A stretch of 21,169 bases of DNA from Chthonomonas calidirosea (GCA_945859975.1 CAMAPH010000044.1:1-21169), one strand, 5' to 3'; counted from the first letter of the stretch, positions 2,538-21,169 are shown. Made by a program: numbers and translations. Notes: generated by a model from the letters alone, not told the origin.

Positions 2538-4017
2538 TGAATTTGTATGCTGCCTCGTTCCAGCGGAGTTCGTTCTTGAAGTTGTTCAGTTTGGTTTCGG
2601 AGTCGATGACCAGGCACTCGACGTTCGCGATCTCCGCGAAGTCGCGGACCTGTTGGGACGTGACGTTATAGCTGTAAACGGTGTGGTGCGCGCCGCCGCC
2701 GTAGATCCAAGCGGCAACTCCTTCTTGGAAGTTCGGGTGGACCTTCCACAGGGCACTTGCCACCGGTAGGTTTGGCATCTCGGGCACCTCGACAGCAGTG
2801 ACATCGTTCACGATGAATCGGAATCGGTGACCGAGGTCCACGACCGTCGTGTTCGTTGCCGCGCCAACGCGGGAGCTGAACTTCAATCGAACCGGGTCCG
2901 ACTTTCCGCCGATGCCCAGCGGGTGAATTTCGAGTCGTGGCTTGTTACTTGCAATGCTCGGGCAGATTTCCAGCATGTGAGCACCGAGGACCTGTTCTTG
3001 GCCCTGGACGAGGTCGTAGGTGTAATCCTCCATGAAGCTGGTTCCGGGGAGAAGCCCTGTTTCGAGAGTCTTGAACGCTCGCAGGAGAGCAGCGGTCTTC
3101 CAGTCTCCTTCTCCGCCGAATCCATAACCGGCAGCCATGAGTCGCTGGCACGCCAGGCCAGGAAGTTGGTCGAGGCCGTGCAGGTCTTCGAAAGTTGTCG
3201 TGAAGCCCTTAAAGTTTCCGTCCTCCAAGAAGGCTCGGATTCCAATCTCTTGCCGTGCGGCGTAGCGCAACGCATCGTGCCGAGCTCCGCTGACCGCGAG
3301 TTCCGGTGCGATGTCGTACAGGTCGGCATATTCGGAAACCAGTTGCGTGACCGAGTCATCGGACGCGCCGTCGACGAACTTCACGAGATCGCCCACGCCG
3401 AAGCCGTTGACGCTGAATCCGAATTTGGCTTCGGCGGCGACCTTATCACCCTCGGTGACCGAAACGAACCGCATGTTGTCGCCGAATCGGGCGAACTTGG
3501 CTCCCTGCCAGTCGGCCCACGCCAGAGCGACTCGCGACCAATCGCCGAGCTGCTTTTGGACCGAGGTGTGGCTCCAATGTCCAACCACGACTTTTCGGCG
3601 AAGGCCCAGGCGAGTGTGAATGTGACCCGCCTCGCGGTCGCCGTGGGCGGCCTGGTTGAGGTTCATGAAGTCCATGTCGATGGTGCTCCATGGCAACTCG
3701 GCATTGAACTGGGTGTGAAGGTGGCAGGCTGGCTTGTTAAGCTGGCTCAGTCCGCCGATCCACATCTTGCCGGGCGAGAAGGTGTGCATCCAAAGCACGA
3801 GTCCGATGCAGTCTGGATCGGAATTGGCGGCAAGCACCAAGGCGCGAACGGCCTCAGGGTCGGTGATGACCGGTTTGAAGATGACGCCCACGGGAATATC
3901 CGAGGAACTGTCGAGCTCTTGGGCGATCTTCGCGGAGTTTTCCGCGACTTGCTTGAGAACTTCGGGGCCGTAGAGGTGCTGACTGCCGGTAACAAACCAA
4001 ACGCTAGGATTCGCCAT
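2530..4017 (-). CDS. araA: L-arabinose isomerase
   Basis: [48 protein letters not shown] and GGAHH motifs; 495 aa. Confidence 0.97.
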
Positions 4018-4030
4018 TAAATTCTGTTCC

Positions 4031-4139
4031 TTTTATATTCCGAAGTGTGAATATATATCGTGACTTCGTGCGACCGACAATGTTAGCCCATACGGTGCTT
4101 GCATCAACGACCGAGACAATTTTAGCCCCGTGGTATAGT
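4031..4139. promoter_or_regulatory. Divergent araA / regulator promoter region with candidate operator
   Basis: Plus strand: extended -10 TGGTATAGT (4131-4139). Minus strand: TTGATG (4107-4102), 16 nt, TAACAT (4085-4080). AAGTGTGAATAT (4043-4054) is the exact reverse complement of 5182-5193. Confidence 0.55.
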
Positions 4140-4153
4140 GCCGCATCAGCGAG

Positions 4154-5131
4154 ATGCAGCATCACATCAAGGAACTTTCCGCGCACGAGAGCGTGGCGCT
4201 GTTCCGTGCGCTGGGTTCTTCCACTCGAGCGCGCATCATCGAACTCCTTGCCGAGCGCGAATTGAACATCGGCGAACTGAGTTTGGCCCTCGGCCTAACG
4301 CAGCCGAGTGTGACGAAGCACATTCAAATCTTGGAAGAAGCCGGCATCGTTGTCAGCGACTACATCGCCGCACCGCAGGGAACCCAGAAGCGATGTCGGT
4401 GCGTTTTCGAGCGCTTACTGGTTGATCTCGCACCGAAAGTTCCGGTGCTGGATGGCTTCGCAGAGACGGAAGTGCCGGTCGGAATGTATACGGATGTTGA
4501 CGTTCGGCCGACCTGCGGACTTGCGACGAAAGAGAAGTTTATCGGTCTGGTTGACGCCCCGGTTTCGTTCTTTTTGCCCGAGCGATCACAGGCAGAAATC
4601 CTCTGGTCAGCCGGTGGCTGGGTTCAATATGCGTTCCCAAACACCATTCCAGTCAACTGCCACATAAAGTCGATCGAGCTCGTGATGGAACTCGGGTCGG
4701 AAGCGCCGGGATACAACAACCAATATCCATCAGACATCACGGTTTGGGTAAATGAAGTTGAAGTGGGAACCTGGACGTCTCCAGGAGACTTCGGAGGTAG
4801 CCGGGGACAGTTGAACCCGAGTTGGTACCCCGATAACATGAACCAATGGGGCGTTTTGAAGACGTGGCTGGTGGACGGCGAGGGCGGCTACATCGACGGA
4901 TTCCAAATTTCCGACGTCAAGATTGATTCGCTTAACATCCTTCCATGGGCACCGACGAAGGTGCGGATAGGAGTGAAGCCAGACGCAAAAAACCAAGGTG
5001 GATTCACTTTGTACGGCCGCTCGTTCGGAAACTATCAGCTTGGACTCATCTTCCGGGTTCGTCACGAGACTGAGGAACAGGAAGCGAAAACAAAACCGAA
5101 GCGGAAGAGCAAAGCTGTCGATTCCAAGTAG
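4154..5131 (+). CDS. ArsR-family HTH transcriptional regulator with long C-terminal domain (COG4189-like); probable arabinose-locus regulator
   Basis: N-terminal FRALGSSTRARIIELL...LNIGELSLALGLTQPSVTKHIQILEEAGIV wHTH. The C-terminal PTCGLA, ELGSEAPG, WTSPGDFGGSRGQLNPSW and NQWGVLK motifs are recalled as COG4189-type. Divergent from araA. Confidence 0.85.
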   Translation: MQHHIKELSAHESVALFRALGSSTRARIIELLAERELNIGELSLALGLTQPSVTKHIQILEEAGIVVSDYIAAPQGTQKRCRCVFERLLVDLAPKVPVLDGFAETEVPVGMYTDVDVRPTCGLATKEKFIGLVDAPVSFFLPERSQAEILWSAGGWVQYAFPNTIPVNCHIKSIELVMELGSEAPGYNNQYPSDITVWVNEVEVGTWTSPGDFGGSRGQLNPSWYPDNMNQWGVLKTWLVDGEGGYIDGFQISDVKIDSLNILPWAPTKVRIGVKPDAKNQGGFTLYGRSFGNYQLGLIFRVRHETEEQEAKTKPKRKSKAVDSK

Positions 5132-19058: not shown

Positions 19059-19267
19059 GCTTTTAAAATACTCCGAGTTTTTGGATTGGTTGTGTAGGAC
19101 GAACGAATTGAAGGCAATTTGGGTCGAGAAGGGTGGATCAGGGCGTCGCTTTGAGCTTCTGCCGGGGCGCTTTGAGCTTCGCGCCTTGTCTAGCTTTGCG
19201 TGGCCTTGCATGGCCGGGGAACCTTTGGGGGCGTAGTGTAATTAATGTTCCCCCCCAGACGGATTAA

Positions 19268-20272
19268 TTAATTACAGCCCATGTTAGGTTCAAATTCTTC
19301 TTCAACCAGGGCGTAGGGGCGGGACTGGGAGGTGGAGGTTAGGGGCATGGTTTTGCCTTTGCGGCTGAGGACGCTTAGGGTAACTCGGACGGATTCGTAT
19401 TTCAGCCCGAGGGCTTCGGAGATTTCGGTTGCGGTGGCGGGGCCTTCTTTTAGGAAGTTCATGATTTGTTCGGTGTTGGTTTGCGGGCGTTCGGCGGTTG
19501 CTTCGTCGGCTAATCGCCAATCGAAGAAGCCGCGGCTCTCGACTTCCACTCGGGACGGCGGGGCGGGGTGGCGGCCTTGGCCGTGGATGGCGTAGCGGCG
19601 CGGGTTTTCCCCGGTCCCGATTCTTTCGAAGAAGAGATGGGTGCTGCTGGTGGCGAGGATTTGGGCGGAATCGGCGAAGCGCTCGGGGTAGTAGCCTCGG
19701 TGGGCACTTTTGGTGAGGTGGTGCAGGACGAGGGTGGCGCAGCCGAAGTAGTAGCTCCACTGACTGATTTTCGACATGATGTGCCGTGCCGACTGGTTGT
19801 CGGCGAGGTTGGTTCGTTCGACGGCGGCTTGGAGGCAGTCGATGACGACGAGCTTTGCGCCGAGCTTCATGGCCTCGACATAGACGTAGTGGGTTCGGTC
19901 TTTGTCGGGTTCATATTTGGGCTGGTTCAGGAAGCAATCGGGGTCGTCGAGGCGCGGGATTCCGCGGCGGTAGCCGATGTAGAAGGGGTCTTCGGGGGTG
20001 AGTCCGGCGTGGAGGGGTACTCGCTCGCGCGGGGATTCTTCGTGGGCGCACCAGACGACGGGAGCGGCTTGTAGCTGGTGGCCGAGGAAGGACTCGCCGC
20101 GACACAGAGCGCGGGCGAGGGCAGTGGCGAAGACGGTCTTGCCGACTTTGGGAGCGCTGGCGAGGACGACCATGCCCTGGGTGGGGATGAGGTTGGGGAC
20201 GAGCCAGTCGGGCTCGGTGGTGTGGGCGTGCTTGGACGGTTCTCCGGCACGCTCAAGGAAAATGGGTCGCAT
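19268..20272 (-). CDS. RecA-like (AAA_25/RepA-helicase-like) P-loop ATPase with C-terminal winged HTH
   Basis: WLVPNLIPTQGMVVLASAPKVGKT (Walker A), HEES, LVVID (Walker B), LVLHHLTK; C-terminal GPATATEISEALGLKYESVRVTLSVL HTH. Confidence 0.8.
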   Translation of the reverse strand: MRPIFLERAGEPSKHAHTTEPDWLVPNLIPTQGMVVLASAPKVGKTVFATALARALCRGESFLGHQLQAAPVVWCAHEESPRERVPLHAGLTPEDPFYIGYRRGIPRLDDPDCFLNQPKYEPDKDRTHYVYVEAMKLGAKLVVIDCLQAAVERTNLADNQSARHIMSKISQWSYYFGCATLVLHHLTKSAHRGYYPERFADSAQILATSSTHLFFERIGTGENPRRYAIHGQGRHPAPPSRVEVESRGFFDWRLADEATAERPQTNTEQIMNFLKEGPATATEISEALGLKYESVRVTLSVLSRKGKTMPLTSTSQSRPYALVEEEFEPNMGCN

Positions 20273-20318
20273 ACCTTATGAGGGCGTTGGGAGGGGAAAA
20301 GTCAACCAAGGTTTTTGC

Positions 20319-20333
20319 GGGGGGGGGGGGGGG
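20319..20333. repeat. G15 homopolymer
   Basis: 15 consecutive G between the ATPase start codon and the array. Confidence 0.9.
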
Positions 20334-20372
20334 AAGATATGGTAGCTTACAATATCTAAGAATATCAACCTG

Positions 20373-21169
20373 GCTGGGAAAGCTTCGGAAGCCATGATCT
20401 GATACACTTCTTCTGATAAGGACAAACCAAGTCATGTTGGGAAAGCGGTTGAAGGTTTGATCTGATACACTTTCAATATTCACAGGACGGCAGATTTGGT
20501 TTGGAAAGCCGGCAAAGTCCTGATCTGATACACTTTTCCGGCTGTTCGACACCGAAGTTGTCTTGTTGGGAAAGCCGGTCAAGCCCTGATCTGATACACT
20601 GGCCAACCCTACACCCTCTCTGGCCAGCAGGTTGGGAAAGCCGGTCAAGCCCTGATCTGATACACTCCACTCTTCGGTCGGTTCCCATTCACGTATGTTG
20701 GGAAAGCCGGTCAAGCCCTGATCTGATACACTCGGCGCGTTGAAGGTTCGGAGTGATCTTTAGTTGGGAAAGCCGGTCAAGCCCTGATCTGATACACTCG
20801 GTCCGCTCAACACAACCACGCCGATTGTGTTGGGAAAGCCGGTCAAGCCCTGATCTGATACACTTCGATCGGCGGTACAACCTTCTCTCGCAACGTTGGG
20901 AAAGCCGGTCAAGCCCTGATCTGATACACTCTTCAAACTCGGCTTGTTACCGTCGAATCGGTTGGGAAAGCCGGTCAAGCCCTGATCTGATACACTACCG
21001 GTCAAATCATCATCAGCTCACGCCTAGTTGGGAAAGCCGGTCAAGCCCTGATCTGATACACTAAGGTGTTAGTTTCATAACAGTTATTATTGGTTGGGAA
21101 AGCCGGTCAAGCCCTGATCTGATACACTTTCTCTTCTCTTCTCTTCTCTTCTCTTCTCTTCTGGTTGGG
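20373..21169 (+). CRISPR. CRISPR array; 36-nt repeat GTTGGGAAAGCCGGTCAAGCCCTGATCTGATACACT; 12 full repeats plus 1 truncated, 12 spacers; type II-C-like
   Basis: Repeats start at 20373, 20436, 20499 (degenerate), then 20565, 20631, 20697, 20763, 20829, 20895, 20961, 21027, 21093 (identical) and 21164 (cut). Spacer lengths are 27, 27, nine of 30, and 35 nt. Strand and subtype are inferred from the 36/30 geometry and the terminal TGnTACACT. Confidence 0.97.

Follow-up and report, generated by a model that had tools for sequence, protein, structure and literature searches.

Worn repeats and short spacers at the old end of a type II-C CRISPR array in Chthonomonas calidirosea: possible retention of old crRNA units by selection

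Are the degenerate repeats at the far end of a CRISPR array mere leftovers, have they been recruited for another task, or do they still serve the array to which they belong? This question is raised by a stretch of 21,169 nt from Chthonomonas calidirosea (GCA_945859975.1 CAMAPH010000044.1:1-21169), referred to here as the window, which is an entire contig (C44) and carries 12 copies of a 36-nt repeat. The first three of these (R1 to R3) are worn in their middles and separated by short spacers, and an initial annotation had seen in them a natural CRISPR interference (CRISPRi) cassette comparable to scaRNA, the small CRISPR/Cas-associated RNA of Francisella. These repeats and spacers make up the old end of a type II-C array of the ordinary kind. 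That selection protects the ends of the worn repeats is now supported by the sequence of a second lineage, and since this lineage has replaced all later spacers sampled and yet kept the old units, we lean towards reading units 1 and 2, possibly also unit 0, as CRISPR RNA (crRNA) genes that still work and are under purifying selection. For a scaRNA-like role we found nothing positive beyond this constraint and one match at chance level, and we regard it as improbable.

Compared with the 36-nt consensus, R1 (20373..20408, on the plus strand, as are all elements of the array given here) differs at seven positions (2, 12-16 and 22), R2 (20436..20471) at six (12, 14, 16 and 20-22) and R3 (20499..20534) at four (4, 15, 16 and 20). 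Fifteen of these 17 mismatches fall in positions 12-22, and at least 15 of 17 changes in those 11 positions would have a probability of 1.3e-6 if changes were spread evenly over all 36 positions (binomial); the last 14 nt are perfect and identical in all three repeats. Because the change at position 16 (to G) is the only one common to two of the three repeats, the pattern does not go back to one inherited change; the same block has been altered repeatedly and differently. Spacers 1 (20409..20435) and 2 (20472..20498) are both exactly 27 nt long, so that the start-to-start distances of the repeats at this end are 63, 63 and then 66, while 24 of the 26 later spacers measure 30 nt, one measures 29 nt and one, of low complexity and uncertain length, lies at a contig break. 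Upstream of R1 stand a 24-nt spacer 0 (20349..20372), which is either the guide of the oldest unit or merely flanking DNA, and a 13-nt relic of a repeat 3' end, R0 (20336..20348), which keeps the motif TGnTAnnnT and could be the promoter of spacer 0. Compared with the consensus tail, 8 of the 14 nt up to 20348 agree, and the motif is kept as well, a combination present in 191 of 3,117,836 windows of the genome on one strand (6.1e-5 per position). All these elements had been described by the initial annotation, and all are found where it had placed them. TGnTAnnnT, which makes up the last nine bases of the repeat, occurs in all 29 repeats of the array; a structured RNA spanning the cassette was not indicated (z = -0.32).

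The remainder of the array in the window (20535..21169) comprises spacers 3-12 and nine consensus repeats, breaks off 6 nt into a further repeat, and continues on a second contig, C66: the end of C44 and the reverse complement of C66 overlap exactly over 36 nt through the low-complexity spacer 12, giving 29 repeats in total, with nine repeats of the consensus form in C44 and 17 at the end of C66. On C66 the array adjoins the genes cas2-cas1-cas9, reading toward the array, and a gene for the trans-activating CRISPR RNA (tracrRNA). The encoded proteins match Cas9 (TIGR01865, 1.2e-173), Cas1 of the NMENI type (7.2e-79) and Cas2 (TIGR01573, 3.7e-18); Cas9 appears to retain the RuvC and HNH motifs. 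Neither csn2 nor cas4 was found, the interval between cas2 and the array holds no further open reading frame of at least 90 amino acids, and none of five reading frames scanned upstream of cas9 matched a cas family. On the opposite strand, just upstream of cas9, there is an anti-repeat with a promoter-like site ahead of it and hairpins and a terminator-like stem behind it, and Rfam returned no match at this tracrRNA or at the cassette. Because cas9, cas1 and cas2 occur without csn2 or cas4 and together with a tracrRNA anti-repeat, the system belongs to type II-C. Beyond the last repeat, a short conserved stretch is followed by a hairpin that, read in the orientation of the repeats, looks like a terminator and carries a T run. 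Two observations on these contigs may be added. Spacer 12 is a microsatellite-like (TTCTC)n sequence at the very site of the assembly break (window 21129-21169 and the C66 end), its true length is uncertain, and a 15-nt piece of it recurs at C2:77008-77022. Upstream of the tracrRNA gene and cas9, C66 further carries a transfer RNA gene (3544-3628) and a weak match to an MntA-like antitoxin (3645-4608; locus L009), which suggests that the cas locus sits in a variable island.

Which end of this array is the old one can be judged by comparison with a second lineage. A metagenome scan with a loose repeat pattern recovered three loci (L012, L013 and L014), all from one lake metagenome sample, and the same pattern matched no genome contig. 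L012, at the end of an 81-kb contig, shares with the window the flanking ATPase gene and the succession of spacer 0, R1, spacer 1, R2, spacer 2 and R3, has a shorter run of G, and goes on after R3 with entirely different spacers; L013 is the cas2 side of the same lineage, with a last spacer that differs from that of our genome, and L014 is another stretch of its array. None of the 26 later spacers is common to the 32 sampled from this lineage (best match 17/30). Because the two lineages have only the far-end units in common and differ at the cas2-proximal spacer, the degenerate end, far from the cas genes, is the oldest (trailer) end of the array, and spacers enter next to cas2, as described for type II-C (PMC12080349). 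Arrays of this type are reported to gain spacers at the last repeat (PMC12080349; PMC5965381). Within the single metagenome, L014 and L012 have the spacer after R3 in common and then diverge, so sub-strains with different arrays coexist.

The two lineages are sufficiently far apart for a comparison of substitution rates. On this side they are 92.8% identical across 2.2 kb, and on the cas side 90.0% across 2.1 kb; fourfold degenerate sites differ at 30/176 and 24/133 in two flanking genes and at 34/241 in cas1 (about 0.14-0.18), and codon positions 1-2 at 26/1232. From spacer 0 to R3 we counted 16 differences over 186 sites. R2 is identical throughout (36/36), R1 differs at two of 36 positions (2 and 22) and R3 at six (12, 14, 15, 20, 22 and 26), five of them within 12-22; R0 differs at 2 of 13 nt with its motif kept, and spacer 0 at a single one of its 24 nt (position 4). 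Spacer 1 differs only at positions 5, 7 and 12 and spacer 2 at positions 1-3 and 12, so that none of the seven differences in these two spacers falls beyond the 12th nt (P = 0.002) and both are unchanged over their final 15 nt (0/30 differences; P = 0.007 against fourfold sites). When the repeats are divided into the classes of the initial annotation, ends differ at 2/75 positions and middles at 6/33 (Fisher P = 0.0097); the ends evolve more slowly than fourfold sites (54/309; P = 4e-4), the middles do not (P = 1.0). From the biology of type II-C systems, three groups of sites were set in advance as functional: the R1 and R2 tails, positions 7-27 of the spacers, and the 11 nt with which R2 and R3 begin. 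They add up to 92 sites, and three of these differ between the lineages. By these counts, the guide parts, the promoter motif and the lower-stem segment of the old units seem to evolve far more slowly than fourfold sites.

The obvious alternative is that R1 to R3 are inert relics, either older forms of the repeat or products of decay at an end that is never renewed, with spacers 1 and 2 dead and their likeness between lineages due to ancestry. Much about the locus agrees with it: first repeats of type II-C arrays are mutated in a reported 60% of cases against 5% of other repeats (PMC12080349), the mismatches rise toward the end (4, 6, 7, and then R0, which is almost gone), and the middle of R3 differs between the lineages at 5 of 11 positions. 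The variable block is moreover the part that differs between species in this repeat family. Repeats of the same family occur in eight of 175 genomes of the bacterial family, including this one, with TGGG at the 5' end and the last 14-15 nt in common and positions 7-21 variable, and since the repeats of all eight genomes show it, conserved ends around a variable middle must be seen as the general pattern of the repeat family. However, the 16/186 differences of the cassette, set against 54/309 at fourfold sites, reject a uniform neutral decay (P = 0.007), the constrained class differs at only 2/105 sites (P = 9e-6), and the different changes at the same positions of R1, R2 and R3 do not line up in any simple way as successive ancestral states. 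That the cassette was transferred recently is also unlikely, because the cas and ATPase sides are as diverged as free sites. The suggestion of the initial annotation that the units might descend from an ancestral repeat variant thus holds in so far as they are the oldest units and vary where species vary, but inert relics would lack the constraint observed; given the site pattern of the differences between lineages, we judge inertness unlikely.

The old ends of related arrays offer a further standard. In three of them (G037, G088 and G055) a single terminal repeat is worn in its first 6-10 nt and the spacers have the normal 30 nt. R0 fits this pattern; R1 to R3 and the two 27-nt spacers do not, and the locus is unusual among its relatives in both respects. 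In another relative (G028), a promoter-like stretch at the position where the array begins in our genome (L016, about 2560-2600) agrees with the repeat's second half in 14 of 20 bases, including the TCTGATAC core, which may be a coincidence or a hint to the origin of the repeat.

What the intact parts of the worn repeats have in common becomes apparent when they are laid onto the predicted duplex with the tracrRNA, for which the pairing of repeat and anti-repeat was worked out by hand and with RNAduplex. Positions 1-10 of the repeat form a lower stem, positions 11-15 an internal loop, and an upper stem starts at position 16 with a mismatch at 22. Over the first 11 nt of R1 to R3 there are just two changes in 33 positions, while positions 12-15, in the internal loop or next to it, account for 8 of the 17 mismatches. 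The worn block would therefore sit mainly on the loop and on a partly mismatched upper stem, where changes cost little, and the intact ends would correspond to the lower stem and the promoter motif. The consensus duplex has an energy of -41.7 kcal/mol. R1 reaches -40.6 kcal/mol in spite of its seven changes, a value equalled by only 0.5% of 2000 random mutants with seven mismatches, and R1 of the L012 lineage reaches -42.6 kcal/mol; R2 reaches -35.2 kcal/mol, and 10% of random mutants with the same number of changes pair as well; R3 reaches -32.2 kcal/mol, and 55% are equally stable. Pairing with the tracrRNA is thus spared clearly in R1, marginally in R2 and not in R3.

These features can be joined into a proposal for how the old units would be read. 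In arrays of Neisseria and Campylobacter a promoter lies within each repeat and transcription starts inside the spacer (PMC5965381; PMC12080349), and by this logic a crRNA would consist of the spacer from about its seventh base and the opening part of the repeat behind it. The extended -10-like motif that makes up the last 9 nt of each repeat would set off transcription some 7 nt inside the spacer that follows, a start placed by analogy, and the transcript would extend into the next repeat; the first 10 nt of that repeat would pair with the tracrRNA as the lower stem, and the duplex would be loaded into Cas9. R3 would, on this prediction, act both as the promoter for spacer 3 and as the repeat part of the crRNA of spacer 2. 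The guides made from units 1 and 2 would measure about 21 nt, which is not below cutting length, and unit 0 might add one of 18 nt; the truncated guides envisaged by the initial annotation are not borne out. Its claim that selection acts on the promoter and on the tracrRNA-pairing ends fares better, as decay is non-random and the intact parts are those that a type II-C crRNA unit needs, though the regulatory function attached to that claim finds no support.

Several points weigh against the view that the old units are selectively maintained crRNA genes. Only two alleles are at hand, and the tests draw on 16 differences, among which changes of several bases may each be one event; counting those in spacers 1 and 2 as about five events raises their P to about 0.02. 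The contrast between middles and ends across lineages is owed nearly entirely to R3, which holds 5 of the 6 differences in middles, R1 and R2 being conserved throughout, and gene conversion from consensus repeats could help to keep the repeat ends alike, although not the spacers. R3 has a lower-stem mismatch (position 4) and pairs no better than random mutants, so the crRNA of spacer 2 may load poorly. Ordinary acquisition does not explain two spacers of 27 nt, and no spacing so short occurs in related arrays. Finally, no target was found in phage, viral or genome searches, which did not cover a plasmid collection, and viral collections are probably poor in this lineage. Searches for more alleles were of little help: a repeat with up to three mismatches was absent from all 174 other genomes of the family, and four metagenome runs (X1-X4) yielded no third allele of the cassette, as X1 carries the allele of the window and the contigs of X2-X4 carry, letter for letter as far as tabulated, that of L012, which is thus one allele seen repeatedly. 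The initial annotation had proposed conservation of spacers 0-2 among relatives as a check, and they are indeed kept in the second lineage; any spacer at the oldest end would be, and their presence as such does not separate the readings.

If the old units make guides, against what would they be directed? Neither half of the array matched any of 50,697 phage records by blastn. In IMG/VR, exact scans found no 20-mer of spacer 1 or 2, nor, in an attempt to define a protospacer adjacent motif (PAM), any 21-mer of the two newest spacers of this genome or of the newest one of the other lineage, and the general repeat pattern also had no match there. A 16-mer seed of spacer 1 gave 60 matches in IMG/VR, the best extending to 22/27 and the distribution peaking at 18 as chance predicts, and that of spacer 2 gave 14, the best at 20/27. 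A full-length phage match, by which spacers 1 and 2 would have been recognised as ordinary old spacers, was therefore seen neither in the phage records nor in IMG/VR. The cas-proximal part of the array on C66, compared with 46 genomes of the genus, met only related arrays and chance fragments. Wider searches with a 20-mer were made for spacer 1 only: with up to two mismatches it gave five matches in the 175 family genomes, as many as a backwards control, and among all species genomes a single one, in a Sphingobacterium chromosome, without extension. A PAM could not be derived from solved Cas9 structures either, as the closest of them, the Neisseria enzyme, is similar to the C66 protein over residues 9-763 only. 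Our best guess is that the target would be a persistent mobile element absent from the collections searched.

The host genome itself, searched in an assembly that is 96% complete, contains no self-target for any of the 29 spacers, nor for 30 of the other lineage. The longest exact host matches anchored at the 3' end are 10 nt for spacer 0 and 12 nt each for spacers 1 and 2, the latter inside an open reading frame; of the 26 later spacers, 25 lie between 10 and 13 nt and the low-complexity spacer 12 comes to 30. For spacers 0, 1 and 2 there are 4, 2 and 4 sites that agree with 13 of the last 15 nt, against 0-11 for the others, and no host site matches 14 of the last 15 nt of any of the three. 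Nowhere on C44 or C66, including the cas9 promoter and the tracrRNA region, is there a seed match of at least 9 nt. The one host match with a suggestive position belongs to spacer 1, the last 12 and 11 nt of which are the complement of the start codon and the next three codons of two RHS/YD-repeat paralogues of 1254 and 1274 amino acids (C3:52528-56292 and C15:45068-48892, both on the plus strand). A guide would pair there with the coding strand, and the same 6 nt stand on the PAM side at both sites. This position may be taken as a lead, and because the genes are paralogues the two matches count as one event. The paralogues themselves are nearly identical in their N-terminal and core regions and differ in their C-terminal ends, and the C3 copy ends, by eye, in a motif like that of HNH-type nucleases.

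Could units 0-2 then be fixed regulatory guides, with which a nuclease-active Cas9 would bind host genes through some 11-15 nt of PAM-proximal pairing and repress them without cutting? Since Cas9 apparently has both RuvC and HNH motifs, the host chromosome would bear no more than partial pairing. In spacers 1 and 2 the 15 nt at the 3' end were kept while all later sampled spacers turned over, and as position 12 is altered in the two alike, each has an invariant part of 15 nt; both are 27 nt long, unlike the rest of the array and its relatives; and the match of spacer 1 lies at the starts of two RHS toxin genes with the same 6-nt flank on the PAM side. Regulatory mini-arrays are known, furthermore, in types I-B, I-F1, II-A and II-B (PMC10120712). 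Yet the lengths and numbers of host matches of spacers 0-2 are within the range of ordinary spacers, the RHS matches are one event, the contigs that carry the array and cas9 offer no seed match, the units are contiguous and in register with the array rather than stand-alone, and the predicted guides are not truncated. The initial annotation had pointed to host matches of 10-15 nt, in particular at the cas9 promoter, as the place to look; those of spacers 0-2 proved to be no longer than those of ordinary spacers and the promoter had none, so that the CRISPRi or scaRNA-like function it proposed is not supported. We consider fixed regulatory guides rather improbable, and still a little more so their specific form, in which two or three guides would have been fixed as regulators and Cas9, with a guide of about 21 nt of which some 12-15 nt are selected, would occupy the starts of the two RHS polymorphic-toxin genes, and perhaps of other genes, and repress them without cutting. 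A role in host regulation seems less likely than the targeting of a mobile element. Were it true, we would be dealing with a natural CRISPRi cassette lodged inside an adaptive array and not with a stand-alone scaRNA.

Unit 0 calls for separate treatment, since spacer 0 and R0 might be conserved as the promoter of the divergent ATPase gene and not as a crRNA unit. A promoter-like site oriented toward that gene (20339..20368, minus strand), composed of TTGATA, 18 nt and TACCAT, was found once where shuffled sequences led us to expect 0.4. Both hexamers are unchanged in L012, the nearby differences (20338, 20345 and 20352) lying outside them, TGGTA of R0 is the complement of the minus-strand -10 hexamer, and spacer 0 overlaps the same site. 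Against this, the likeness of R0 to a repeat tail occurs at about the expected distance upstream of R1, with the low chance frequency given above, and the 5' part of R1 and its pairing with the tracrRNA are kept, which would be useful only with a spacer upstream. The roles of ATPase promoter and crRNA unit are not mutually exclusive; for spacer 0 and R0 taken by themselves, the promoter role is a candidate to which we give somewhat less than even weight.

How does the locus compare with better-known systems? It resembles the type II-C systems of Neisseria meningitidis and Campylobacter jejuni in having cas9, cas1 and cas2 only, 36-nt repeats and 30-nt spacers and also in the TGnTAnnnT motif at the repeat 3' end, an array read toward the cas genes, the addition of spacers at the cas2 end and a first transcribed repeat that is the oldest (PMC5965381; PMC12080349). 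It differs from them in its three successive repeats worn in the middle, in place of one first repeat worn in its first 15 nt, as well as in the two 27-nt spacers and the constraint seen across lineages. In type II-C arrays a mutated "extra" first repeat is described as suppressing extraneous crRNA, its mutations lying in the first 15 nt and weakening the pairing with the tracrRNA (Feussner et al. 2025, PMC12080349). R0, having lost its 5' part and kept its tail, is alike, as are the terminal repeats in G037, G088 and G055; R1 to R3 keep their first 11 nt nearly intact and R1 pairs like the consensus, the opposite of weakened pairing. We rejected R1 to R3 as crRNA-blocking extra repeats of this kind, with only 2 of 17 mismatches in positions 1-11 and a pairing energy of R1 close to that of the consensus.

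The scaRNA of Francisella novicida, tracr-L of S. pyogenes and the CreA/CreR (cr-like) mini-arrays are similar to our units (PMC10120712, PMC13431127, 10.1101/2020.05.21.102756) in a degenerate repeat that flanks a short spacer-like segment, in conservation among relatives and in a short PAM-proximal stretch that is apparently selected. Unlike them, the units described here are not stand-alone, and neither a partial promoter target with a PAM nor a match to the own cas promoter was found. The scaRNA of the N. meningitidis type II-C locus is reported to act mainly as a small RNA on the efeO mRNA, with Cas9 involved at most indirectly (Pytlik et al. 2026, PMC13431127); it is alike as a small RNA of a type II-C locus with a host target at a translation start, for which the candidate here would be the RHS site.

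The flank beside the array deserves a few words. A run of 15 G (20319..20333) marks the boundary between the array and the neighbouring gene, and the similarity to the array-less relative G028 ends exactly at it. The run counts 9 G in L012 and is shorter than in the window by 7, 8 and 9 in contigs of X2, X4 and X3, respectively, a variation between samples that may be real or an effect of assembly; in run X1, contigs of other strains depart from the window sequence at 20299 and 20306. The neighbouring ATPase gene, which belongs to the flank and not to the cassette (19268..20272, minus strand), encodes 334 amino acids with a P-loop-like motif recognised by eye; its product matches no NCBIfam family and is 94% identical in L012. 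In other genomes (loci L016 and L017) the gene occurs without any array, beside small repeated open reading frames, in G028 and in two copies in G021, and the array seems to abut a region resembling a mobile element. On the far side of the gene, a 56-nt intergenic stretch (window 19212-19267) is 100% identical between the lineages, while the flanking genes differ by about 6%.

Old spacers are usually seen as passive records of past encounters. Here, the pattern of substitutions suggests that certain old crRNA units have been kept by selection. Should more alleles dissolve this pattern, what is left would merely be the decay expected at the old end of a type II-C array. Should it hold, sequence alone could tell which members of an array still matter, and the locus would offer a candidate route by which a regulatory guide of the scaRNA or cr-like kind may arise from the end of an ordinary array.

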